Positions 2,655-62,651 of a stretch of DNA of 64,000 bases are shown in pieces (the first letter of the stretch is position 1; each line of letters starts with the position of its first letter). A program made the translations under genes and the position numbers. The stretch spans positions 1,152,001-1,216,000 of the forward strand of contig CM000434.1 in assembly GCA_000165345.1 (NCBI GenBank), read 5' to 3'. A model generated the notes under the pieces. It searched no databases, was not told the origin of the DNA, and saw only the letters and a list, made by a program, of their open reading frames with translations.

Positions 2655-3100
2655 TTTGTTAGGCTGAATTGAATCCTCTTTCTTTTGATGTTATTTGAGA
2701 TAAATGTATTTGACTTTTCTCCTCCTTTACTATTTTTCTTTAGATTTCAATTCACTTTCCTTTAGAACTTTAGCTTATCATTATTCAATTTCTGACTTAT
2801 TTCTACTTATTTTTGTAGAATTTTCAATTTAAAAATTCTACAACTGATCGTACTATTTCTCTACTAACTTTTTCTACTGAAATTCTAAACTTATTTTCAA
2901 TTCTTCCTTTTAATTCCTGGAAAAAATTTTCCCTTTGACTATTTTTGTCAAAATTCTACATTTTTTACGCACCTGTGTCTTTTTGCATGTTTACCATTTT
3001 TTTCATCCACATGCTCGAATACGATTTTGCATGTATACCGGTATGCAAATTTTTTTTAAGAATTAAAATAATTTTTTGTAATACCGGTACCGCCCCACAT

Positions 3101-3472: not shown

Positions 3473-5131
3473 ATGTCATTAATTTGCTCAATTTCAGGAA
3501 CTACTCCTGAAGATCCTGTGATCTCAAAGACAGGATATATCTTTGAAAAAAGACTCATAGAGGAGTACATAAGATGCAATAATAGCTGTCCAATCACAAA
3601 GAGTGAGCTTTCTTTGGATGATTTGATTCAAGTTAAGTCCAAAAGTAATTTAAAGCCAAGATTGATTAAAAATACAAGTATTCCAGGTATTCTTGACTCC
3701 CTTAGAACAGAATGGGATGCAATGGCAATGGAGATGTTCCAGCTTAGATCTGAGCTTGAACAGACCAAATCACAACTGACTCATAGTCTTTATCAACATG
3801 ATGCTGCTTGTAGAGTGATTGCCAGAATTACTAGAGAAAAAGACCAAGCCATTAGTAGGTTAGCTGAAATCCAGAATAGTATTCTTGAGAAGGATGAAGA
3901 TAATATTACTAGTCTTCAAAGTGTAGGAGGTAAAAGGATTAGAGCAGAAGATAATTTCGTTAATATCCCAGAAGACGTTATAGACCTTTTTACTGAATAT
4001 TCGGATAAAATGCGACCAATTCGAAAAAAACAGTCATTCCCAGACCTTATACCTGCTGAACAAGTCAAAGAATTTTCATTAAAGAGTGAAATAAAACTCA
4101 AAGAGAACTGTAACATAGAGGTTGGAGTAGCTTTCAATGACGAAATTTACGTCTCTGGAATGGAAAATGGCGAGATTCTTGTATCAAGCATAGAATTTGA
4201 TAGAAATGAGATATCTTCTATCCCTATAAGTTATCCACAAAATTGTGAACAAGCCGTTTCTATTTTCGCCATCGAAAAATATTCAGGAAGTCAATACTCA
4301 TCTAAAAATACTAGCCAGCTCCTCTCCTCCTTAAATGTTCTTGCTTGCTTTCAAAACTCAAATAAGATTCATATATTCTCTAGAAACCAAGAAGATGATG
4401 AATCTTTTAACTTATCGCTCATGGATTTTAACTCTTCTTTTGAATCAAACATCATTATCAACTCACTCGAAAAACACCCTTTAGGAATGCATATAATTGC
4501 AAATTCTTCAAATAAAGGCCTATTTTCCATGTTTGATCTGGAATCCAGAAAACAACTTTTCCTACATCAACTTGAACAAAATAATTCATATTCACAACTC
4601 AAACCACATCCTGATGGCCTTATTCTTGGAGGAATTGTACCCAATGGGAATATTGTTGATATATGGGATATTAGAAATCTAGAGAAAATTTCATCCCTTG
4701 AACACCCCACGAAAAATAATAATATTGACCATAACGACCCAAATATTAGCAGAAACTCCAGCCTTTGCTTCTCAAATAATGGATACTATTTGCTTTCTAC
4801 CTCCCTTGACAATAAAATCCACCTTTGGGATCTTAGAAAATCTGCTATTCTTGATTCTCTTGAACTATCCACACTCCCTAACAATTCTAACCTGATTTTA
4901 CAAATTGATGAAAGTGGAAAATATGCCTCCTGCTTTAGCAAAAACCATTTCTCCATTTTCTCACTCTTCAATAAACACAAACTACAACTTATCTCATCCT
5001 TGTCCAATTTCTCTAATAGAAATAATAATAATAATCTCCCAGACAATATCCACCATATTCACTTCAACCAAAATCTTAATTCATTCTCCTCATTATGCCA
5101 CAGTGGAATTATTCGTATGTGGACAAATTAA
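3473..5131 (+). CDS. PRP19: Pre-mRNA splicing factor PRP19 (U-box E3 ligase + coiled coil + WD40)
   Basis: The N-terminal U-box MSLICSISGTTPEDPVISKTGYIFEKRLIEEYI...CPITKSELSLDDLIQV matches the PRP19 N-terminus, followed by a coiled coil and a C-terminal WD-repeat region. The track ORF starts at TTG 3428; the first ATG is 3473. Confidence 0.85.
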   Translation: MSLICSISGTTPEDPVISKTGYIFEKRLIEEYIRCNNSCPITKSELSLDDLIQVKSKSNLKPRLIKNTSIPGILDSLRTEWDAMAMEMFQLRSELEQTKSQLTHSLYQHDAACRVIARITREKDQAISRLAEIQNSILEKDEDNITSLQSVGGKRIRAEDNFVNIPEDVIDLFTEYSDKMRPIRKKQSFPDLIPAEQVKEFSLKSEIKLKENCNIEVGVAFNDEIYVSGMENGEILVSSIEFDRNEISSIPISYPQNCEQAVSIFAIEKYSGSQYSSKNTSQLLSSLNVLACFQNSNKIHIFSRNQEDDESFNLSLMDFNSSFESNIIINSLEKHPLGMHIIANSSNKGLFSMFDLESRKQLFLHQLEQNNSYSQLKPHPDGLILGGIVPNGNIVDIWDIRNLEKISSLEHPTKNNNIDHNDPNISRNSSLCFSNNGYYLLSTSLDNKIHLWDLRKSAILDSLELSTLPNNSNLILQIDESGKYASCFSKNHFSIFSLFNKHKLQLISSLSNFSNRNNNNNLPDNIHHIHFNQNLNSFSSLCHSGIIRMWTN

Positions 5132-5329
5132 TCACACGTAATGAAACACCGGTATATGCTTGCATGCAGAAAAATTTGCAATGCATGCATTTTATAATAT
5201 ATAAAGAAACAAAATTAACAAATCAAATAAGCAAGAAAAGTAAGAAAAAAAAATTACCAAAGAAAAAACTAGATAGAAACTCTAAATATCTTTTTTTGTA
5301 ATTATTAATTTCTAAAATACTTCATTCAT

Positions 5330-11174: not shown

Positions 11175-11507
11175 TTTACTTAATTACTTTTTAGTTCAAT
11201 TAACTTCAACATATAATCATCAAATTTTTTTGAATATCTTGTCATGTCATCTTATTATTATTCTTGAAAAACTATGACATGCCCACATAATTGCATGCAA
11301 ATAATTATTTACATTTTAGTCATACAAAATTGCATGCAAATGCCGGTATAGAGAAAATAATTCATTTATCCACATGAAAATAAAACAAACTTTCTATTAA
11401 TTAGTAATACATTGAGAAATTAGGAAGTTTTAAAAGTCATTAAAAAAAATAAAAAAATTTTCATCTTTTTTAAAATGAATTAAATTCTGAAAATAATTGC
11501 TAATTAG

Positions 11508-12848: not shown

Positions 12849-13020
12849 ATTAGTATGAACTGATTAACCTTCCAACAAAAGTAATCTCTTTAATTTTCTG
12901 AATATATCTCAACTTATTAAAACCAGTAATCTATACATGAAAAAAAGAAATGTATTGACAAAAGTTATTTAGCTTTTAATTTATATGTTTCTAGGCATCC
13001 CAACTAAAAATTCTAATTTG

Positions 13021-13062
13021 AATTCCTGCATGCAACGGTGATTAGGTTTGCATGCAGGAATT
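13021..13062. promoter_or_regulatory. Perfect 15-bp inverted repeat AATTCCTGCATGCAA n12 TTGCATGCAGGAATT, an extended TGCATGCA palindrome, upstream of the CRT-like gene
   Basis: Each arm embeds TGCATGCA. It lies about 175 to 215 bp upstream of the CRT ATG (12848). Confidence 0.5.
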
Positions 13063-13601
13063 ATATTTTTTATCTTTTTGAAAGCAAATTCTAAAAAAAA
13101 ATATACTAAGTTCTGATTTCCTTATCAAATCCTAAATTTCCATTATTTCCGCTTTTCTTAATTTTTCCTCCAATCAAATACACACTGAATACTATCTTTT
13201 ATTAATTGTATGTATACCAAATCCAATAAACATCCATTCTAATTCCCAACTTCCCCACCTTTAGTAGTTCTGTCTTTATTATTACGAAATACATTGCATG
13301 CAATTTATAAATAATTAGGCGGGAAATTTGAGCCATATTCATCAGTTACGAATATTGAAAATAAAAACTCAAAAATTAAAGGTATATAATCTCATAGAAG
13401 CTTCTACTTTAAATATGTATAGTTTGTGAAATTGGCTAAGAAAAAGTATCTGTCTAAAGCCATTTGTATCAAGCCAAATTGTCTAGTTCAGAACAATAAG
13501 GAGCTCAATATTTATATTATTTGAGCCAACAAAGGACAATCAATAGCCGTCTTTTCCCATAAACCCAATGGTGGAAGCGAATTAAAAGACATGCTCAAAA
13601 T

Positions 13602-13937
13602 TTAAGCATCACATCTTATTCTAAATGAGTTAAATGCGTGTTCTTCCACAGTACGACGATTGGAGACTACGCACTTTTCAATTGTGGAACCGGGACTACC
13701 TTCCCTTTCCAAAAAATCAATCCTAAAGACAAGCATTAAATAATACTAGTGTTTGTGTAATTAAACATACATTTTGATAACAGAATCTTCGTCTCCCTCC
13801 AACTCGCCAATAACCGTACCAGAAGGGGTATTTTTGCACCATCCAAAGACGTTAAGTTCATTAGCCTTAAGAAAAGTGTATTTCCTAAAAGAAACACCCT
13901 GGACTTTACCAAAGACTTCGAACTCACACTTTAACAT
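13602..13937 (-). CDS. Acylphosphatase, two exons: 13771..13937 and 13602..13722, with an intron at 13723..13770
   Basis: Exon 1 carries both acylphosphatase signatures: FEVFGKVQGVSFRKYT and GWCKNTPSGTVIGELEG. The track ORF 13761..13973 starts at TTG and stops three codons after a GTATGT donor. Splicing GTATGT...TTTAG (48 nt, phase 2) restores the conserved C-terminus MIDFLEREGSPGSTIEKCVV... (compare human ACYP1 MQEWLETRGSPKSHIDKANF), giving about 95 aa. Confidence 0.7.
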
Positions 13938-13989
13938 TCTTAAAACGTCTAAGCTATGTACAATTGAACACAATCTATTCTTATTATTA

Positions 13990-14009
13990 TTTTTTTTTTT
14001 TTTTTTTTT
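13990..14009. repeat. T20 homopolymer in the acylphosphatase/CCCH divergent spacer
   Basis: Seen directly. Confidence 0.8.
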
Positions 14010-14659
14010 ACTATTAAAGATTATTTATTCACATTGTGCCTTTAATAAATCTGTTTGGCGCCAACAGCCAGCATATTTTCGAATAATCAAAGAGCGATAT
14101 CTTTTGAAAAAAAATTTATTTTCACACCAAAATGGTAAATTGCCTCGTTTAAAAATATACACAAATTAATACGTATTATTCGATATCCAACAATAGACAA
14201 ACACTGATATGTTCCTCAAAATCACAAGAAATAATACGTCATATAAGTTTCCCGCGTCTCTCCAATCTTGGATATGTATAATTAGACTATAATGGACGAT
14301 ACAGGATAACTATGGACCCAGTATAACTGCCTAGGTCGCACTATACGTGTTATTATCTGACATTTTAATGAGACATAACATTAAATCGTCGGTCGAAAAA
14401 TAATCCTGTTGGGTAACCATCAGGTTACAAAAGGTCGATTTAAATTTTTCCGAGGAATTTGAGACGAGGAGTAAGAGTTCACTACTTAACGCTTAAATAT
14501 AACAGCTACAAGTGTAATATTATGTTCTTTGACCAAAGACTTTCTTCAGAGAAACGGAATATATATATTTTCAACAATTGAGCTTCAACAACTGAATATC
14601 TAAGTTTATTGTTTTAATATATTAAATAGTATTGTTAATATTTATAAAGAGTTGAAAAA

Positions 14660-16423
14660 ATGCCTTTGAGCCAGAATATGAGTATGACTGAACTTTCACG
14701 TTTCAGGACAAGAATATGTGAGAGAAAGGCTTTACATGGAGTATGCGAGCTTGACGAGAGGTGTCCTTTTTCACATTGTCTTTCCTGGCATCGTAGAAAT
14801 CCTTACGAATATGCGTATAGACCGAACTTATGTCCTAATGTAGTTTTCCAGAATGAGAATAAGAAGATGCGTGTTAAGAACTATTGCCAAAGAGGCAGAA
14901 TGTGTATGTTTTCTCATACAAAAGAGGAGCAAATGTATCATGTTTTAGTATATAAGACTCAATTATGTCGCGAATATCCGTTATGTACAAAACATTATTG
15001 TCCATTTGCTCATGGCTTAGATGAATTAAGAAATCCAGAAACTATAGAATTTGACCCAGTACAAGGACCAGAAGTAATTGAACGTCAAAGACTTGTTCAT
15101 GATTGTAATAAATTCAATGAAATTGATTTATCCGAAGATTTGAATGACTCCATAATTATAAGGAATAAGGAGGCTATAATAAGTAACGTTACAACTTCCC
15201 CAATATCTCCATCAAATTCTCCTTTACATTCAAATATGACCGCTTCAAGCCTAGCACCTGTAATGGATCAAACAAAGAGTCAAAATAGTAAATATTCTTT
15301 AAGGAATAAATCTCAAACATCTGCATCAAGTACAAATAACTCACCTAAAAAGGGTGGTAGGGGAAGTAGTTTTAATCACAATAAGGCAAATTCTAATAAT
15401 CAAAATAGACAATTTACAAATCATGAATTATTAAAGGGAGAGTTAACTCCTATAAACAATACAAATGAGTCTCCTGTTACACCATCAACAGGGTGTGAGA
15501 CCCCTCTACATTCTCAAAATCACATTGCTTCAACAGGATTTAAGAATGATGCTCGTAAAACTGTAAATAGAGATTTTCAGAGAAAGGAAGTCGATAGAGC
15601 TAGAGGTGCTTCTCCGAATACAAGAAGTGCGTTTCCTAAAGTTATAGATGGAGACGAAGTTGCTCATGCTAGAGATAATGTGAATATTCCTCCACCTCCT
15701 TATAATGCAATAGGCTTAAATTTTCCATGTAATGAAGGATTAAATGACAATACAGATCCTTCGTCACTATTACCAAACTATGATTTTGGAAGATTTGCAT
15801 GGAATGGCTACTTTGATAGAAATAAGAATTTATTAAATAATAGACTAATCGACTATGAAAAGAATAAAATGGTTCAAGAGCCATTATGTAGTATTGATGA
15901 TTATGGAAATGGGGCAAGTGTCGAACAAATGTCTTATTTAATGCACTTACAATTGCTTTCATTATCAGACTCTCCAGAAAAGTTATTAGAGACAATGAAT
16001 AACAATGATTCAGATTGGAGTTTATCGAATCCTGCTTTTGGAATTACAGGGATTTACAATACTCAACAAAATAGAGATTCAAGTGCATGCAATAGTCCAT
16101 GTAACTTTTCTACAGAATTAAATTCAAATCCTATTCCTTCTACATCTCACCAAGATGCAATAAGATGTCAGAATGAAGTCAAAGTTACTCCTAATTCTCA
16201 ACTTTTCTTATCAAACAACTATTTTGATGATTATAGGTTTGATTTTATTAATGACAATGTTCCTAATCATGACAAGATGGGACTAAGGGACATTAATAAT
16301 TTGTACAATAGATCAGATATTAACTTAAAGATCGATTGTACAGATAATTCATGGAATCTGTTTCATCCAAGCTTACTTGGTTCAAGTACCAGAGATGGAG
16401 ATTTTTGGACGGAAGGGAAATGA
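14660..16423 (+). CDS. CCCH-type zinc finger protein with three C3H fingers and a long S/N-rich tail
   Basis: C-x8-C-x5-C-x3-H (CERKALHGVCELDERCPFSH); C-x17-C-x5-C-x3-H; C-x5-C-x4-C-x3-H (CREYPLCTKHYCPFAH). The last spacing resembles the plant TZF-type finger. ATG at 14660. Confidence 0.75.
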   Translation: MPLSQNMSMTELSRFRTRICERKALHGVCELDERCPFSHCLSWHRRNPYEYAYRPNLCPNVVFQNENKKMRVKNYCQRGRMCMFSHTKEEQMYHVLVYKTQLCREYPLCTKHYCPFAHGLDELRNPETIEFDPVQGPEVIERQRLVHDCNKFNEIDLSEDLNDSIIIRNKEAIISNVTTSPISPSNSPLHSNMTASSLAPVMDQTKSQNSKYSLRNKSQTSASSTNNSPKKGGRGSSFNHNKANSNNQNRQFTNHELLKGELTPINNTNESPVTPSTGCETPLHSQNHIASTGFKNDARKTVNRDFQRKEVDRARGASPNTRSAFPKVIDGDEVAHARDNVNIPPPPYNAIGLNFPCNEGLNDNTDPSSLLPNYDFGRFAWNGYFDRNKNLLNNRLIDYEKNKMVQEPLCSIDDYGNGASVEQMSYLMHLQLLSLSDSPEKLLETMNNNDSDWSLSNPAFGITGIYNTQQNRDSSACNSPCNFSTELNSNPIPSTSHQDAIRCQNEVKVTPNSQLFLSNNYFDDYRFDFINDNVPNHDKMGLRDINNLYNRSDINLKIDCTDNSWNLFHPSLLGSSTRDGDFWTEGK

Positions 16424-17245
16424 AAGGATATTACAGCTAATTATTAATTTATTAAAAATTTAAATTTCATGCTTACAGCTTTATTCTTATTGGTTTTCTC
16501 CTTAGTACTTTCTCGGCTAATTAATCAATTATGGTCGAGATAATTCATGCTTAACGTTCTTTTGTTTGTGATTTTTAAATAAAGGAATCAGCTAAACAAT
16601 TTTATTCTTTAATTGGGCCTAGATTACTTATTGTTTTTTTTCTTAGTGATGAAGTTTTGTATTAATTAATTTTTATCTTTACGATTTGCATGCATTTCTT
16701 TTTTTATTATTGACTACATGCGCAATACTCACATGCAAATTTAGTACCGGTGTTTTGATTACGTGTAATAATTTTATGTGGACAACATTTTATTCTGTAT
16801 GTTTGTATTTTTAATTCTTGTGTCTGTAGTTTGATTAAAATTAATCTCGGAAATGTAAGAAAGAAGAAGAGATTATGGCAATTTAAAAGTTATTTTTGCG
16901 ATAGATGTGGAAACTAAGACGATGTTAGTTTTTGAGAAGTAGGAGAGTCAGTTTTTATTTCATTTATTGATTTTATTTCAAGGTTTACAAGTCAAAGAGG
17001 TTAAGGTAAAATTCAAATGACGGGATTACAGCAAAATATTGCAAAGTAGCAATATTAGACCTAAATGTTTTTTGTATTGTAAATCAACCAGAATTTTTAG
17101 CATAAATAATACAAAGGTCAATTTATTAAACACCCAAAATTGGTGTTTTGTTAAGTGTGCAAAGGGTGACCGCAAAATGTCAAAAAATCAAAAATATTGC
17201 AACTAAAGGAAAAATCACTAAATACAACATAAATGTTGAGATAAT

Positions 17246-18967
17246 ATGAAAAGTAATGAAATTTTTGAAAGAATCAAAAAGAGCTTTAAGACAAGGGTGG
17301 AGGACTTTAAGCAAGGCAGACAGAGTTGGAGATTGAAGGAATGGCATCATCTACAATCAATACTGTATTTAATCTATGGAGCAGGAGCGCTCGTTTTTGT
17401 GAGATTGATAGCTAATTCAAACCCAGATAACAACAACTATGATCATTTTGTGAATGATCCAAATGATCCAGGGAGTTCATTCACCCATTGTGGGATTACT
17501 CCAATGTTTAATATGATACCAATTCCGGGATCTTACATATTATTAATATACTCAGTTTATTCTTTATCAATAATAAGCTTGACAATTTCATTCTTATCAT
17601 TTATATTGGGATTCAGTTTCAAATTTTTCAGCAGAATTCCTAGAAGCTACTTTTTCTCTCCATCAAAAAGAACAAGAGTATTGGGTTTTTGCTGCAAGAT
17701 ATTACCAATAATTATCAGAATTTTGAATTTGTTTTTTATTCTACTTTTGGTCATCCCATTTATATATATCACAACCAGTGGAGCTTGTTACAGGAGATTA
17801 GTTAGATTTGAAAGAAATAAAGTACAAAATTGCAGGATATGGGTTAATAAATGTGCAAAAGACCACCGAATTTTTGGAAGGCATTTAGAATGCAGTTTAA
17901 GAAAAAACTTTAAACACTTTCCAACGGAAATTGTTGAAGATCCCACAATTGGCGAAAATCTCGACATTATTATTGGAGGTCCAATGCCTCTGTTATGTCC
18001 TATGTGCAATGAAGTGAGAATGGACCCAAAATCACCTTTATATAAAGGAGAAGCTTATGTTGAGCAACTTAAGTCATCTATCTCTAAAATGGAAGCAATT
18101 AATATTAAAGACAGGTCATTATATCAGGTAGAAGCATTATCGCTTATTCAATTAAGTAATCATATTTCCACAAGATCCGAGAATATTCCTAATATTTATA
18201 CAATCCAAGATTACGAAGAGATGATAAAGCCTATTATGTTTAATAATATTTCACCATTAATGCAAAAGATCATTAGTAATCGCCAGAATTTATATGGCTA
18301 TTTTAAACTTTTGCCATTTTCACTTATCCAACTCGAATCTAATGTGAAAGGCAAGACCAATGAAAAAGAAAAAAATGATGATTTGGTTTCTCTAGAAGAG
18401 CCTATTAGTATTGATTTTAATTCTGAATATATTAAAAATTATGATAATTATAGACCCTCCATACAACTACCTTCAAAAGTTAGTATTCCATCCAAATTTA
18501 AGTCAATTGTTGAAAAATATGCTGCAGCTCTTTCATCACAGGTAAATGGTGATACTTTATTTAGTGAAGAAGTTACTCAAAAAAAAGATACTTTTCCAAA
18601 CAAAAATCCTAAAAAGAATCAACATAAAGAGGTTGACAAAGCAACTCTAAATAATTCATATAAAAGCACATTTTATTTTAGTGGCGACTCTAACCCCACT
18701 CCACTAACTATAGATCAAAGTATCGATTTAAACAGAGAATTTGAAGCTGCAAGATATCAAATACAAGTTTCCATGCACGAAGGAAGCAACTTTTCAAGAT
18801 CAATCTTTGTATTTATGCTCATCTCTCTCATTTTTTGGGCATTGACACGCTTCTTTTCTTTTGCTATCTTTGATACTACCAGAAATGAGGCCTGCTTTTA
18901 TGTTCCTAATTCAAAAAGAACGCTCATTTGGTCCAAGCTAAGAACTTTCTTGGACATACTAAGCTAA
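17246..18967 (+). CDS. Hypothetical multi-pass membrane protein
   Basis: 573-aa ORF with an ATG at 17246. Several hydrophobic helices sit in the N-terminal half and at the C-terminus. No recognisable domain. Confidence 0.55.
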   Translation: MKSNEIFERIKKSFKTRVEDFKQGRQSWRLKEWHHLQSILYLIYGAGALVFVRLIANSNPDNNNYDHFVNDPNDPGSSFTHCGITPMFNMIPIPGSYILLIYSVYSLSIISLTISFLSFILGFSFKFFSRIPRSYFFSPSKRTRVLGFCCKILPIIIRILNLFFILLLVIPFIYITTSGACYRRLVRFERNKVQNCRIWVNKCAKDHRIFGRHLECSLRKNFKHFPTEIVEDPTIGENLDIIIGGPMPLLCPMCNEVRMDPKSPLYKGEAYVEQLKSSISKMEAINIKDRSLYQVEALSLIQLSNHISTRSENIPNIYTIQDYEEMIKPIMFNNISPLMQKIISNRQNLYGYFKLLPFSLIQLESNVKGKTNEKEKNDDLVSLEEPISIDFNSEYIKNYDNYRPSIQLPSKVSIPSKFKSIVEKYAAALSSQVNGDTLFSEEVTQKKDTFPNKNPKKNQHKEVDKATLNNSYKSTFYFSGDSNPTPLTIDQSIDLNREFEAARYQIQVSMHEGSNFSRSIFVFMLISLIFWALTRFFSFAIFDTTRNEACFYVPNSKRTLIWSKLRTFLDILS

Positions 18968-19010: not shown

Positions 19011-19092
19011 GTCGATCTGCCCGAGTGGTTAAGGGGCTTGACTAGAAATCAAGTGCGGTCTCCGCGCACAGGTTCGAATCCTGTGGTCGACG
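19011..19092 (+). tRNA. tRNA-Ser (anticodon AGA), class II with a long variable arm
   Basis: Acceptor stem GTCGATC/GGTCGAC, D-arm CCCGAGTGGTTAAGGG, anticodon stem CTTGA/TCAAG with loop CTAGAAA (anticodon AGA). The variable arm is GTGCGGTCTCCGCGCAC and the T-arm is GGTTCGAATCC. A Pol III T-run (GTTTTTTAGGTTTTT) follows at 19093. Confidence 0.85.
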
Positions 19093-19419: not shown

Positions 19420-19713
19420 ATGAAGACAAATTTGAGTTATAGATATTATTTAAGGAATAATATCTCCCGAATTTACTACTTTTACATACTATTATCAATG
19501 TTACACAAAGTAATGGCTCAGAGTGAAAAAAGAAAGTTGGCATTAGATCCTGATACATATACATCAAAAACTGTGTCTGAATATTTTTTGTCAAATCCTG
19601 TTACATTCTTTATAATGATTTGGATGTGTGTTCACGTTTTCCTGGGGATTCTATTCTTTTGCTTCCTATCTAGTGAACGATCTCTAATGAAGCCTACTTC
19701 CGTAACTTTATAA
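19420..19713 (+). CDS. Possible small membrane protein (start could instead be 19498 or 19513)
   Basis: 97-aa ORF with ATG at 19420 lying downstream of a GGCGCCAA box (19303..19310). The C-terminal half has hydrophobic helices (VTFFIMIWMCVHVFLGILFFCFL). No homology recognised, so it may be spurious. Confidence 0.25.
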   Translation: MKTNLSYRYYLRNNISRIYYFYILLSMLHKVMAQSEKRKLALDPDTYTSKTVSEYFLSNPVTFFIMIWMCVHVFLGILFFCFLSSERSLMKPTSVTL

Positions 19714-20149
19714 AAATTTACCAGATAATTTACTAGATATTATGTAAATTAATTATTTGAGTCTAAAAGATAAATAAAGAATTCATATTATCTATTTCTG
19801 AGGGGTTTCCTCATTAAAGTCAACTAAATAAAAATCTAAAAGCTAATATCTTGCAAAATGCATCTCCAATCATTCTCGTTTGGTCATTAAATTTTAAAAA
19901 TCGAAAAATTTACATCAATTTAAGCTTTTTAATATATCACTTAGAATTTAATATAATTTTATTATTATTTTATTACCCTTTTTTTCAACTATATACCGGC
20001 GCAGTACACGTAATTTTTTTTGAATTTCTTAAAATCCTATACCGGCATTTTTAAGTACCGGTATGCGAAAGCAAAAGTTTTAAAAAAAAAAAAATTTGTG
20101 TAAATTTGTGGGAACTCAAAAAATACCCAAATTATTTCACAACGAATAG

Positions 20150-22804: not shown

Positions 22805-23435
22805 TATAATCCTTTATTATTTTATTCAATTTTAATATTTCTTTACTTTCCTAAATAGTAATTTCACACGTAATTTGTGCATGCATGCAAAAAAGTTTAC
22901 AAGAAAATAGATGACGTGTTTGCATGTGGACAATACGATTTTGCGAGGATAAGAAATTTCTGTAGTAGTGGCAGACGGTTTATAATGTGTGTGCATTAGA
23001 GGAAAAGAGATAAATAAAAAATTAGAATAATTAACTCGCTCGAAAAGAAGGGGTTTATTGAAGAATACAAATAGAAATTCTACATAGTTAAGCTCTAATT
23101 TGCAGACTTTGATGGTTAGAATGAGTTTATCTAAGTCAAAATTATGATGAATAAGATTTGTTAATATAACTGGATAATAGGTTGAAATAATACTGGCAAT
23201 GTGTTGGGTATTTCCCGCCAAAACCTATAAATAGATAACACAAGGAGAAGAAGGAACAATAGCGGAAATTGATAGAAAAATATTGAAAAATGGAAGTTCC
23301 AATATTTTCAGAAACACCTCTTTCAATGCAGAGGAATAGAGAGGCCTTTGTTCAACAGATTAAGAGGTAAGTGTGTGTGGGGGTCTAAAGAGATCAAAAA
23401 GGCTCTGGATAAGGTTTTAACTAAAGTAATAATAA

Positions 23436-24955: not shown

Positions 24956-24967
24956 GGTACCGGTACC
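24956..24967. repeat. 12-bp palindrome GGTACCGGTACC in a 3'-3' intergenic region
   Basis: Seen directly. An E2F-like TTCCCGCC box (24797) and TGCATGCATGCA (25008) lie in the same spacer. Confidence 0.4.
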
Positions 24968-38565: not shown

Positions 38566-38824
38566 TGCATATTCACACAATGAATATCTTCATCATTTCA
38601 TTTCCTTCAACTCATTTCATATAAACATCGCTTCCTGAATTTTTCTTATTCACTTATCTTGGGCTGAATTATTTGATTAAATCTTATATATAATTGATTT
38701 ATATTTAACTCTGACTTTGGCGCCAAAATGGTCCGGTATTAATAGAAATTACAAAGAATATTAAAATTACCAAGGTAGACAAAATTTGCTAGTACAAAAA
38801 GTTTGACTAAAAAGAGAGAGGAAA

Positions 38825-46473: not shown

Positions 46474-46820
46474 TATTGAGATTCTTTGACTTTTAAAAAA
46501 CTCTATTTAGACTTTTTTTTACCCCTCTTTTCCCCCTAAAATTTTTTTTATTAAATATTTAAAAAAAAATTCCCCTATACCGGCCTTTATTTATTGCCCT
46601 ATACCGGTGTTGCTGCATTAAGTAACTTGGCACACAAAAAATTCAAATTAGCTAAAAATTGCAAAAAATTTGGCAGTAAGCCAATAGAAACGAAACTTAA
46701 AACAGAAACTAACAACTTTCTAATTATCAAAACTTAGTGTTTAGCTAGTTATGCCTCTATTTAAGCCTAACAACAATCTACTAGTACCAATATTAACATA
46801 TAATTTGTGAGTTTCACTCC

Positions 46821-48416: not shown

Positions 48417-48859
48417 CTTAGTCTTTTCAGTTCACCTCTTTTAAGAAAATTTCCTTTAAAATTGGAAGAAGAACTTTCTGCCCCAAAATACTAGTCTTTA
48501 TTATTTAATTCCTCAATGACATTAAGGATAGTTATTACCCCTCCTTTTTTCTACTTCCCACTTATATTTACCATACAAGTAAAAAAATTTCAAAGCTTAA
48601 GTCTTAATTTCCCGCCTATTTTTTTTTATTTTTGATCTTTACTTATTACTTCTGTCTTTTAATCAATACCGGTACTTTTTGAGGCGGGCAAACTGTGGCG
48701 CCGCGTGTGTGTAATGAAAATAATATTGAAAGAGGAATGAAAACGAACTCAAAATAAAAAAAAATTAGTGCAACTAAATAAAGAGAGCAAAGTAGATAGG
48801 AATTTACTTTAGTTATTATCATATGAATAGTTGTTTTTGTGTAGGATGATGTTCCTGCG

Positions 48860-50637: not shown

Positions 50638-50680
50638 TGGCGCCTGTTTATTTTTATATACCGGTGTTCCACGTAATTAA
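50638..50680. promoter_or_regulatory. Composite element TGGCGCC ... TATACCGGTGTT CC ACGTAATT in the divergent ECD/PIG-V promoter
   Basis: An E2F-like GGCGCC box followed by the recurring TATACCGGTGTT 12-mer and a CACGTAAT box. The same composite recurs at about 19996..20020, 16746..16770 and (reversed) 5136..5156. Confidence 0.45.
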
Positions 50681-52483: not shown

Positions 52484-52738
52484 TTTTGTTTAAATTCATA
52501 TTAATCTTTAAAAAAATACATTTATAAGGTATAAAGGACAAATTTTTCTATTGTTTTTTCTTCTCAAAAAAAAAAAAAATTTGTATGGATCTTGAAATAT
52601 TTTCTGCATATACCGGTGTTAAGGTATCTAACATGCAAATGGCGCCAAACTTTTTATAGCCTTTGAAAAATTAATAAAAAAGAAAAAAAAAATTTTAAGA
52701 AAATAAATCTTGATATCTAATATTCAATATTGAACTAG

Positions 52739-53168
52739 ATGTCTAGTAAACAGATTAAACTTTCTTCTAATGTTTCTGCTGTAAGTTTCTATTTTGAGTA
52801 AAAAATATTAGTATTGATTAATTAATTTAATTTAATTGTTTTCTTTAAATTTTCTATAGTTGAGATTTATTCAAGCAGCTCAAACTAAAGTAAAACATGA
52901 GGAACTAAAGAAGAAACAAGAAAAAACACTTGGATGGTACTTACCAGGTTTTGAAGAGACAAAAACTAGAGGATCAGAACTTGCAAATAAAAATCTTCAA
53001 CTTGAAAATATGTATATTTTAACTAGAAAATCCTTTAATTCTTATAATCAATTAGTAGAGAAACAAAATTCGAATATAATTTCAAGAAGAAAACATTATG
53101 AAAGAGTTAAAGATGAAGAAAGAGAAGAAAAGATTATACAAAATATGTTTAAAAAACATCAAAAATAG
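52739..53168 (+). CDS. Small basic protein (about 116 aa), two exons: 52739..52780 and 52860..53168, with an intron at 52781..52859
   Basis: Track ORF 52860..53168 begins at TTG directly after a TTTCTATAG acceptor, and its first in-frame ATG is not until M51. An upstream ATG (52739) opens a 14-codon exon (MSSKQIKLSSNVSA) ending in a GTAAGT donor, in frame (phase 0). A GGCGCCAAA box lies about 95 nt upstream. It is K/E-rich with a TLGWYLPG motif. Function unknown. Confidence 0.55.
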
Positions 53169-53303: not shown

Positions 53304-61439
<8,136 letters not shown>

Positions 61440-61657
61440 TGATTGATTGTAATGTTAAGAAATTCAAGTATAATTGAATGATTGTAAAACAGCCGACTGG
61501 TTACTTAATTATCAGATATTAGAATTAAATAACTAATGAACTGCTTATTAGTTTGTCACTTTGATATGAATCCACTTTAATTAGCAATGTAAAGAAGATT
61601 AATAATATAATCTCAGTGACAAATTACATGAATTAAAACTCAAATATAGTGTTAAAC

Positions 61658-62323
61658 TTACTTTTGACCTTGTTCTAATGATATTTGAGACTGAATCTTA
61701 AAATGTTTATGACAATATATTTCAAATAAATGGTTTTTCTCTATTTTAATATTTCTACGTTTATAATGGGGAGATTTTAATAAACAATGAATATGAAAAT
61801 ATTCCATACATTGAGAAAAACGACATTTTCTAAGAATACCAAAATTACCATTACAAAAACAACATGATTTATTATTAATATAAATAAGAGGTTTAAGTAT
61901 TTCAATATTTGACATAGTCCTCCAATTATGTATAGTAATATAATCTTGAGAATAAATAGCACATTCAATATGAATCCAAATAGCTCTATTTTGAAGATGA
62001 TTAAATTTAGATTCAGAAGTCTGAAATAAATCAAATTTTTGTGGTATTAGTACTCTTTTTAAGATTCCAGTGTTAAAACATATGAGACATTTCAAGTCTT
62101 TATTTGAACTTAATTTATTTAGTTGTTTTCCTTTAATTTGAAGTTCATATTGACATGGGTCACATAAAATTACAATTCCTTGACTGGAAGCATTGTGATT
62201 AGAAATTCCATAACATATTTTGTGAAAGAAGACATCACAATTTTTGCATTTGACCAAAGTCAATTCGTTGTATGCGTATTCTTCAACATCATTGCAAATA
62301 ATGCATTCTCTATCATTTAACAT
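61658..62323 (-). CDS. PHD / extended-PHD zinc-finger protein
   Basis: CIICNDVEEYAYNELTLVKCKNCDVFFHKICYG (PHD C4HC3). CLICFNTG...WIHIECA and CCFCNGNFGILRKCRFSQCMEYFHIHCL (ePHD-like). ATG at 62323; 221 aa. Confidence 0.75.
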   Translation of the reverse strand: MLNDRECIICNDVEEYAYNELTLVKCKNCDVFFHKICYGISNHNASSQGIVILCDPCQYELQIKGKQLNKLSSNKDLKCLICFNTGILKRVLIPQKFDLFQTSESKFNHLQNRAIWIHIECAIYSQDYITIHNWRTMSNIEILKPLIYINNKSCCFCNGNFGILRKCRFSQCMEYFHIHCLLKSPHYKRRNIKIEKNHLFEIYCHKHFKIQSQISLEQGQK

Positions 62324-62651
62324 ATAGCAATAGATGAAATATAATTAAGTATATAGAATCCAGAATTTCAGATCAAAAAAGCAATAATAACTGTAATTTT
62401 TTTGGTAAAGTTGTAATGTCTAATTCATTATTATTATTTTTTGACAAAATAAATTTTGATTTTTCGATACCTTATACCGGTATATAAAAAGGCGCCAACT
62501 GTCAAAAAAGAAAATAAATCTGAAAAATAAAACTGGGTGGGAAAAAGAGTAAATGAAAAAAAAAATAATAATAATAAATAAAAAATAAAAGTAATAATAT
62601 TAGTAATAACAAAATAAATAAAACATTATTATTAATATTAAAAAGTAAAGA

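Follow-up and report, generated by a model that had tools for sequence, protein, structure and literature searches.

A 64-kb stretch of Cryptosporidium parvum chromosome 6 (GenBank assembly GCA_000165345.1, contig CM000434.1, positions 1,152,001 to 1,216,000 of the forward strand), referred to here as the window and numbered from its first letter, carries in its intergenic spacers a short recurrent word with the core TATACCGG(T/C)(A/G) and the full palindromic form TACCGGTA, hereafter the TACCGG motif. It is a real and conserved intergenic cis-element, and it appears to be undescribed for Cryptosporidium. What is observed directly is that the motif is enriched, confined to intergenic DNA, conserved between species, indifferent to orientation and clustered with known promoter motifs; it is probably the recognition site in double-stranded DNA of a sequence-specific Cryptosporidium protein, serving as a general promoter-proximal element.

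The window is the cryptopain region, in which the guanine-plus-cytosine (GC) content is ~30% and the genes are intron-poor and tightly packed. Four of its open reading frame (ORF) products, namely cryptopain, a CRT-like transporter, a hypothetical protein and glycosylphosphatidylinositol (GPI) mannosyltransferase 2, are identical to C. parvum proteins (CPATCC_003074 to 003101). ORFs were filtered at 150 aa, and smaller genes fall below this filter, which changes the spacers that count as convergent or tandem. There are 27 intergenic spacers, and non-ORF sequence makes up 24% of the window once the ORFs running off both ends are counted. Intergenic words were ranked against a first-order Markov expectation, with 44 kb of ORFs as the comparison set. 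Syntenic loci of ~22 kb each were fetched through the orthologues of AP-4 beta-adaptin and GPI mannosyltransferase 2 from chipmunk genotype I, C. ubiquitum, C. canis, C. felis, C. xiaoi, C. muris, C. andersoni and assembly L008.

Reading of every TACCGG or CCGGTA occurrence gave 16 intergenic sites, distributed over 12 of the 27 spacers (~44%), with the consensus TATACCGGT[A/G]T, i.e. T-A-T-A-C-C-G-G-T-[A/G]-T-T. TACCGGYR has 20 strand matches at 14 sites where 0.43 were expected, and TATACCGGYGTT has seven matches with at most one mismatch against an expectation of 0.04. The 7-mer ACCGGTA occurs 17 times in intergenic DNA (0.33 expected) and is absent from the 44 kb of ORFs, and ATACCGG occurs 16 times (0.39 expected) with a single copy in the ORFs; these two words hold ranks 3 and 4 among the over-represented intergenic 7-mers, below the E2F word GGCGCCA and the AP2_1 word GCATGCA. 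A TA flank is found on 16 of the 19 intergenic CCGG tetramers. The initial annotation of this DNA, made from the sequence alone, had taken the element to be non-random and confined to intergenic DNA, and this holds true: all 11 ACCGGT hexamers lie outside the long ORFs, that is, within 24% of the window (P ~2e-7). The palindromic ACCGGT core that it described is equally real, since six sites (3036, 3082, 20056, 24958, 48667 and 62475) are perfect TACCGGTA palindromes, and the other ten have one perfect half. The base following the CCGG core is T at 11 sites, C at four and A at one, the weak 38729 site. Beyond about 12-26 bp, the flanking sequence differs from locus to locus.

Exact copies of the near-identical 12-mer on which the initial annotation was built were recovered at 5145-5156 (minus strand), 46600-46611, 50657-50668 and 52609-52620, together with AGTACCGGTGTT at 16743-16754, and its closer variants at about 19992, 20038, 20054, 3034, 46576, 48665 and 62473. 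Its coordinates fall 2-3 nt inside the true sites, and four sites had been overlooked (3080-3091, 11339-11350 on the minus strand, 24956-24967, and the weak 38729-38740 on the minus strand). The 16 sites, with their retention at orthologous positions, are as follows.

3034..3045, unstranded: TATACCGGTATG, a palindromic TACCGGTA site in the divergent spacer between an off-window minus-strand ORF (ATG ~2654) and the Prp19-like gene.
3080..3091, unstranded: AATACCGGTACC, a palindromic site 46 bp from the 3034 site, with an E2F-like GGCGGG 22 bp off (3104).
5145..5156, minus strand: TATACCGGTGTT, in the 198-bp convergent spacer between the Prp19 and DEAD-box helicase genes, with a GCATGC site on each side; the core (5149) is 17 bp past a stop codon.
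11339..11350, minus strand: TATACCGGCATT, ~169 bp upstream of the cryptopain ATG; at this site (11343), chipmunk genotype I, C. ubiquitum, C. canis and C. felis have CCGGTA(T/C)A at an ATG distance of 150-174 bp, the other half being variable.
16743..16754, plus strand: AGTACCGGTGTT, the locus singled out by the initial annotation, 500 bp upstream of ORF 17246; the 16746 block TTAGTACCGGTGTTT..TTACGTGT is retained in chipmunk genotype I, C. ubiquitum and C. canis.
19992..20003, plus strand: TATACCGGCGCA, 154 bp upstream of the AP-4 beta-adaptin ATG; the 19996 block ATACCGGC(G/A)CA(G/A)TACACGTAATTT is retained in chipmunk genotype I, C. ubiquitum and C. canis.
20038..20049, plus strand: TATACCGGCATT, arm 1 of the inverted pair ATACCGG-N~12-CCGGTAT.
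20054..20065, unstranded: AGTACCGGTATG, arm 2, which lies 92 bp upstream of the adaptin ATG; chipmunk genotype I, C. ubiquitum, C. canis and C. felis retain the inverted pair (20042/20058), and C. xiaoi has a variant of it.
24956..24967, unstranded: GGTACCGGTACC, a 12-bp palindrome in a convergent spacer with GCATGC and E2F sites, retained in chipmunk genotype I and C. ubiquitum; 24959 is 165 bp past a stop codon.
38729..38740, minus strand: AATACCGGACCA, a weak site in which one half is good, ~90 bp ahead of ORF 38825, with a GGCGCC E2F site at 19 bp.
46576..46587, plus strand: TATACCGGCCTT, upstream of the ribophorin I gene, where it opens a direct pair.
46600..46611, plus strand: TATACCGGTGTT, second of the direct pair, at a spacing of 24 bp (19-24 bp in other species); the pair (46580/46603) is retained in C. 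ubiquitum, L008 and C. felis.
48665..48676, unstranded: AATACCGGTACT, 252 bp upstream of the CCT chaperonin ATG; at this site (48668), GTACCGGTA beside a CCCGCC E2F site is retained in C. ubiquitum and C. felis and decayed in L008.
50657..50668, plus strand: TATACCGGTGTT, in the divergent SGT1/GPI-mannosyltransferase spacer, with a GGCGCC site at 20 bp; the 50660 block TATACCGGTGT(TC)CACGTAAT is retained in C. ubiquitum and L008.
52609..52620, plus strand: TATACCGGTGTT, ~140 bp ahead of a small MPP6-like gene (exon at 52860-53168); the site (52612) is retained in C. ubiquitum and L008.
62473..62484, unstranded: TATACCGGTATA, in the divergent PHD-protein/TYW2-TRM5 spacer; C. ubiquitum and L008 retain the 62476 block CCGGTATATAAAA..GGCGCCAA, and C. 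felis has a variant of it.

In nine aligned spacers, 59 of the 80 motif columns (74%) are invariant, as against 907 of the 4033 columns of the remaining spacer (22%; Fisher P ~1e-21, with columns within a site not being independent), and identity islands are visible in the alignments. Orthologous sites stand at near-constant distances from the ATG, though the adaptin itself is only 59-85% identical between species. Intergenic ATACCGG is likewise in excess in the intestinal species (7 vs 0.23, 10 vs 0.32, 12 vs 0.64 and 4 vs 0.38 expected), and more weakly so in C. xiaoi (3 vs 0.48 expected). The 3′ half interchanges among TA, TG and CA at orthologous positions, which points to TATACCGGYR as the functional unit; the 12-mer with a YGTT tail, put forward earlier as the unit, is one variant, its tail swapping with TA or CA at orthologous sites. 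The genomes of C. canis (L003) and L008 (SRR31860986) have a GC content of ~47% vs ~30% in C. parvum, yet AT-flanked TATACCGG sites are retained; L008 may be C. canis or a near relative.

Among the motif-bearing spacers, three are divergent (3036/3082, 50660 and 62476), seven are head-to-tail and two are truly convergent (5149 and 24959), and a gene start is present in 10 of the 12. The earlier description of the sites as often lying in divergent spacers is thus imprecise, whereas the distance of 50-500 bp to start codons agrees with the measured values, mostly 80-500 bp. The spacer of 52612 is convergent at first sight and becomes head-to-tail once the MPP6-like gene is counted, which is visible at 52860-53168 on the plus strand, under the 150-aa filter, and is annotated in other species. 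Both orientations of the motif occur relative to the downstream gene. The flanking genes (Prp19, cryptopain, AP-4 beta, ribophorin I, CCT, SGT1, PIG-V, MPP6 and TYW2) are of housekeeping types with unrelated functions.

The sites also keep company with known promoter words. E2F-type sites (GGCGCC/GGCGGG) lie 16-30 bp from TACCGG at six loci (3104, 38719, 48683, 50639, 52641 and 62491), and the CCT and TYW2 promoters conserve this pairing, a hint that the two have a preferred arrangement. GCATGC sites stand near TACCGG at five loci. Both convergent spacers with TACCGG contain GCATGC/E2F sites too, and the other two convergent spacers contain none of these motifs. Antisense long non-coding RNAs (lncRNAs) that start at gene 3′ ends and have E2F/AP2_1 promoters are documented in C. 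parvum; in the part of the PMC7840661 supplementary sequence set that is listed, no lncRNA overlaps 5149, 24959 or 52612.

Some of the sites are accompanied by a second box with an ACGT core, ACACGTAA(T), which has four exact copies, all intergenic and three of them adjoining TACCGG, and a fifth, variant copy, CCACGTAAT, at 50669. Of the 22 ACGT tetramers in intergenic DNA, four have their first base 10-14 nt to the 3′ side of the first C in a TACCGG(T/C)G core, against an expectation of ~0.55. The copies of this box, and a third box that co-occurs with it, are listed below.

5134..5142, plus strand: ACACGTAAT (ACGT box), ACGT starting 13 nt 3′ of the first C of the 5149 CCGG in motif orientation.
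16758..16766, minus strand: ACACGTAAT (ACGT box, reverse), within the palindrome-like ATTACGTGTAAT (16757).
20006..20014, plus strand: ACACGTAAT (ACGT box, forward), ACGT 12 nt from the first C of CCGG.
50669..50677, plus strand: CCACGTAAT (ACGT box, forward), ACGT 10 nt from the first C of CCGG.
22866..22874, plus strand: ACACGTAAT with no TACCGG partner, adjoining TGCATGCATGCA.
16777..16784, plus strand: TGTGGACA, the third box, conserved; also at 22925-22932 and at ~5117-5124, just inside the end of the Prp19 ORF.

The initial annotation had joined the two elements into one composite, with the second half written as ACGTRTAAT and paired in at least four places. A pairing is indeed present at 5134-5142, 16758-16766, 20006-20014 and 50669-50677, but the pattern ACGTRTAAT as written has three exact copies in the window, only one of which adjoins a TACCGG site. 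The further pair that it placed at 22869 is found as ACACGTAAT at 22866 beside TGCATGCATGCA. A single obligatory composite, or bipartite, element is rejected: the box accompanies four of the 16 TACCGG sites and is missing from the other 12, its orientation is forward at two of the four (20006, 50669) and reverse at the other two (5134, 16758), and its spacing from TACCGG varies between 9 and 14 nt from locus to locus. Within one locus the spacing is constant to 1 nt across species, e.g. the 20006 box keeps the same 12-nt spacing in C. parvum, chipmunk genotype I, C. ubiquitum and C. canis. The box is conserved at 16761, 20008 and 50671, and only the TTACGTGT portion of ATTACGTGTAAT is conserved across species. 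The solitary copy at 22866 marks the ACGT box as a separable element. TACCGG and the ACGT box can therefore be separated from one another; they are found together at a quarter of the sites and form no single bipartite signal.

As for a possible reader of the ACGT box, ACACGTAAT shares with the ACGT elements of bZIP proteins (the G/A hybrid box CACGTA and the PAR-type TTACGTAA) the ACGT core and the half-sites CAC and GTAA, and it is conserved; unlike those elements, it is asymmetric. ACGT cores are bound by bZIP proteins of Phytophthora infestans, and a few bZIP proteins are encoded by C. parvum; the box is a bZIP-like candidate site. The third box, (A)TGTGGACA(A), is located 3′ of the ACGT box at 16777 and 22925 and beside the 5134 box, and it matches MEME motif 5 (TTGTCCACATK), which was reported upstream of C. 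parvum lncRNAs.

That the TACCGG motif is a protein site in double-stranded DNA is argued by its palindromic core, its occurrence in both orientations and in homotypic pairs, the combination of a strong half with a degenerate half, and its in-place conservation within clusters of factor sites. That a protein binds the motif, that it activates transcription and to which class it belongs are inferred. Binding would be either dimeric or by a monomer that reads ~8 bp, and the motif would act in short clusters with E2F/DP sites (GGCGCC/GGCGGG) and the TGCATGCA sites bound by AP2 proteins. At some promoters the separate ACGT-core box (ACACGTAAT), read by a bZIP-like factor, and TGTGGACA would join the cluster. 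In this way the motif would help to set the transcription of neighbouring housekeeping-type genes, and in the two 3′-3′ spacers it probably serves antisense or unannotated transcripts. For the protein class, a Myb-type protein would come first, then an AP2 domain giving no array motif, and then a C2H2 zinc finger.

Several observations weigh against such a promoter-proximal site. Analysis of peaks from the assay for transposase-accessible chromatin with sequencing (ATAC-seq) in sporozoites reported E2F and poly-T motifs only, and motif searches in expression clusters did not report the TACCGG motif; cluster-specific searches would miss a general element, but equally one that is weak or inactive. 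Over ~9 kb of spacer, C. muris and C. andersoni show just one site, a palindrome upstream of CCT that is unaligned with the C. parvum site; C. andersoni is too similar to C. muris for the pair to be informative about each other. Two sites lie in true 3′-3′ spacers, one of them 17 bp past a stop codon, which fits a boundary or terminator equally well. Lastly, the sample is one 64-kb window and its orthologues, which are not independent of it.

The boundary is the first of three other explanations to be considered. A Myb-type factor resembling Reb1 or TTF-I could bind between packed transcription units, exclude nucleosomes and stop read-through, and the motif does resemble the yeast Reb1 site TTACCCGG. 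Such a role would suit the presence of the motif in every kind of spacer, including the two 3′-3′ ones (5149, 17 bp past the stop, and 24959, 165 bp past), and in ~44% of spacers beside functionally unrelated genes; read-through and polycistronic transcripts have been reported from this very compact genome. However, two of the four convergent spacers and many head-to-tail spacers do without the motif, which is always found among promoter motifs and at conserved ATG distances. Because half of the convergent spacers lack it and promoter words are its constant company, a boundary function is rated below the promoter one and is unlikely. A role as a terminator only is weakened likewise, as 52612 lies upstream of the MPP6-like gene and the motif-bearing convergent spacers have E2F/GCATGC clusters. 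A point in favour of the idea, contained in the initial annotation, that the motif is an ApiAP2 site, bipartite with the ACGT box, is that TACCGACAT, the target of plant AP2/ERF DREB proteins, differs by one base from the TACCGGCAT of 11339 and 20038. AP2 proteins are the chief specific regulators in Apicomplexa, and four C. parvum ApiAP2 proteins are listed as non-DNA-binding, which leaves room for an AP2 reader. The link is nevertheless not borne out by the listed primary motifs: across the 18 ApiAP2 proteins of C. parvum these are TGCAT-like, CACACA/GTGTGT, G-box, GCGTGCA or AAAA, and none of them resembles TACCGG or ACACGTAA. The two boxes, moreover, vary in orientation and spacing and each occurs alone, and it was stated that many upstream motifs are non-AP2 sites (Oberstaller 2014). 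An ApiAP2 protein that reads the two boxes as one element is improbable, to about the same degree as the boundary.

An RNA-level signal in untranslated regions (UTRs), a dispersed repeat or mobile-element remnant, and an accident of composition are taken together as very improbable. Some sites must indeed sit in transcribed UTRs (5149 is 17 bp past the stop), but a palindromic core that is used in both orientations speaks against a strand-specific signal. As a repeat might, the copies at 5149 and 16745 have ~26 bp in common, the ACGT box among them; against a repeat family, the flanks are dissimilar beyond about 12-26 bp, and the sites are held at orthologous positions across species, which leaves no room for recent insertions. 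Chance and composition are rejected as the source of the motif by dinucleotide-preserving shuffles, which never come near the observed counts, by the Markov expectations and by the TA flank on 16 of the 19 intergenic CCGG tetramers. A small-RNA gene promoter or RNA motif was rejected as well: Rfam at its own score thresholds found in the window only a tRNA-Ser, a permissive RNA-family scan of 16380-17260 gave nothing significant, and no compensatory changes were detected in 16450-16625.

Among classical binding sites, the canonical Myb site is YAACKG, and Reb1 is a general promoter and boundary factor. Myb and Reb1 sites share with the TACCGG motif the TA(A/C)C..GG layout and a similar length; the motif has C and not A at position 3, and CCGG and not CCCGG. 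The YAAC(G/T)G core of canonical Myb sites is absent, with C at the third position of TACCGG in 16 of 16 sites. The plant dehydration-responsive element/C-repeat (DRE/CRT) TACCGACAT, which is read by an AP2 fold, has TACCG.CAT in common with TACCGGCAT; the DRE core is CCGAC, whereas the motif has CCGGY and most Cryptosporidium sites are palindromic. Neither CCGAC nor the GCCGCC core of the GCC-box occurs across the 16 sites. The Grainyhead site also resembles the motif, and all these likenesses, as for c-Myb, Reb1 and DRE, are leads only, the defining cores of c-Myb, Reb1 and DRE sites being absent from the 16 sites. Nor is the motif an E2F/DP site, with a [C/G]GCGC[G/C] or GGCGGG core and T/A runs: TACCGG contains no GCGC/GCGGG, and E2F sites are its neighbours, 16-30 bp off. 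Like the E2F (TGGCGCCA/GGCGGGAA) and AP2_1 (TGCATGCA) motifs, it is short, palindromic, intergenic, strongly over-represented, conserved and found in the same clusters; it differs from them in sequence and in being missing from the published lists consulted.

The initial annotation did not recognise the motif as a commonly cited one, and the published sources consulted agree. It is absent from the 25 motifs of Oberstaller 2013 and from the six motif families in the table of a 2025 review, and CCGG is absent from the texts of Mullapudi 2007 and Oberstaller 2014. A full-text literature search for TACCGG-type strings together with Cryptosporidium returned only primer lists and oomycete papers. 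Supplementary data nevertheless hold unrecognised traces, namely the cluster motif CCGGCAAATTTTGGCG and an instance, CCTATACCGGCTGTC, of the lncRNA 'motif 4'.

The closest counterpart is found in oomycetes, where TACCGGTA is known as an orphan promoter palindrome, M94 of P. infestans (Roy 2013, PMC3597505), as Phytophthora motif-9 GTACCGGTA upstream of 1,284 genes (Seidl 2012, PMC3520976) and as Plasmopara halstedii streme-5 ATACCGGTAT (PMC10031896). Both motifs comprise the same 8-10 bp, are abundant upstream of genes, are orphans and were found by sequence statistics and conservation. The (A/G)TACCGGTA(T/C) inverted repeat of the oomycetes is present in Cryptosporidium as six perfect palindromes and ten sites with one perfect half, and the over-representation upstream of genes and the conservation are found here too. 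However, oomycetes are stramenopiles and Cryptosporidium is an alveolate, the Cryptosporidium sites often have a degenerate half (TATACCGG + YR), and the oomycete motif tracks infection-stage and effector genes, whereas that of Cryptosporidium flanks housekeeping-type genes. A related oomycete palindrome, TACATGTA (M93/AM-20), which differs from TACCGGTA only in its two central bases (AT vs CG), is bound by the single-repeat MYB-related protein PsMyb37 (PMC11134190), indicating that a one-repeat Myb-type protein can read a TAC..GTA palindrome. Two-repeat Mybs of P. infestans bind CCGTTAC, one-repeat Mybs lying outside that assay.

Several other features of the region were observed. Just past the stop of ORF 14660-16423, the non-coding block 16450-16625 is ~90% identical even in C. 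felis, far above the surrounding spacer; RNAalifold found no compensatory changes in it and Rfam gave no match, and possible readings are a small RNA, a conserved element of the 3′ UTR and an exon that was missed (the block starts TTACAG). A second strongly conserved block at ~17130-17215 is located just upstream of ORF 17246 (AAACACCCAAAATTGGTGTTT ... AGTGTGCAAAGGGTGACCGCAAAATGTCAAAA) and contains a short inverted repeat and a possible 9-codon upstream ORF, the latter kept in chipmunk genotype I. The tRNA-Ser gene (anticodon AGA; 19011-19092, plus strand) begins 44 bp past the stop of ORF 17246-18967. An ORF of ~97 aa at 19420-19713 on the plus strand, upstream of the adaptin gene, falls under the 150-aa filter, and at the spot matching 12849-14659 other species have an acylphosphatase annotated. 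From ~54000 to 62000, the GC content falls to 18-28% with a strong negative GC skew, mostly within the 2,711-aa ORF 53304-61439, which is a PHD/zf-HC5HC2H protein in orthologues; the drop is probably due to low-complexity coding sequence. In C. muris (L011 4586-9593) and C. andersoni (L012 4682-9713), genes including a DNA polymerase B domain are found between SGT1 and the GPI mannosyltransferase, an interval that is gene-free in the intestinal species, so that local synteny differs.

Gene control in Cryptosporidium is poorly understood, with a handful of upstream motifs catalogued and most of them without an assigned factor. In the window, TATACCGG stands out as clearly as the two classic motifs, and the intestinal species conserve it. 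A bolder proposal, which we consider doubtful, is that TATACCGG/TACCGGTA would be the site of a third general promoter regulator beside E2F/DP and the TGCATGCA-binding AP2 proteins; this factor would stand outside the characterised ApiAP2 set, would perhaps be of the one-repeat Myb type and homologous to the oomycete factor, and would represent an ancient factor-site pair of stramenopiles and alveolates. The match to the orphan oomycete palindrome provides, in any case, a cross-lineage clue to the factor. If the motif is used genome-wide, it would offer a concrete target for finding a new regulator and an aid to promoter design in transgenic parasites.

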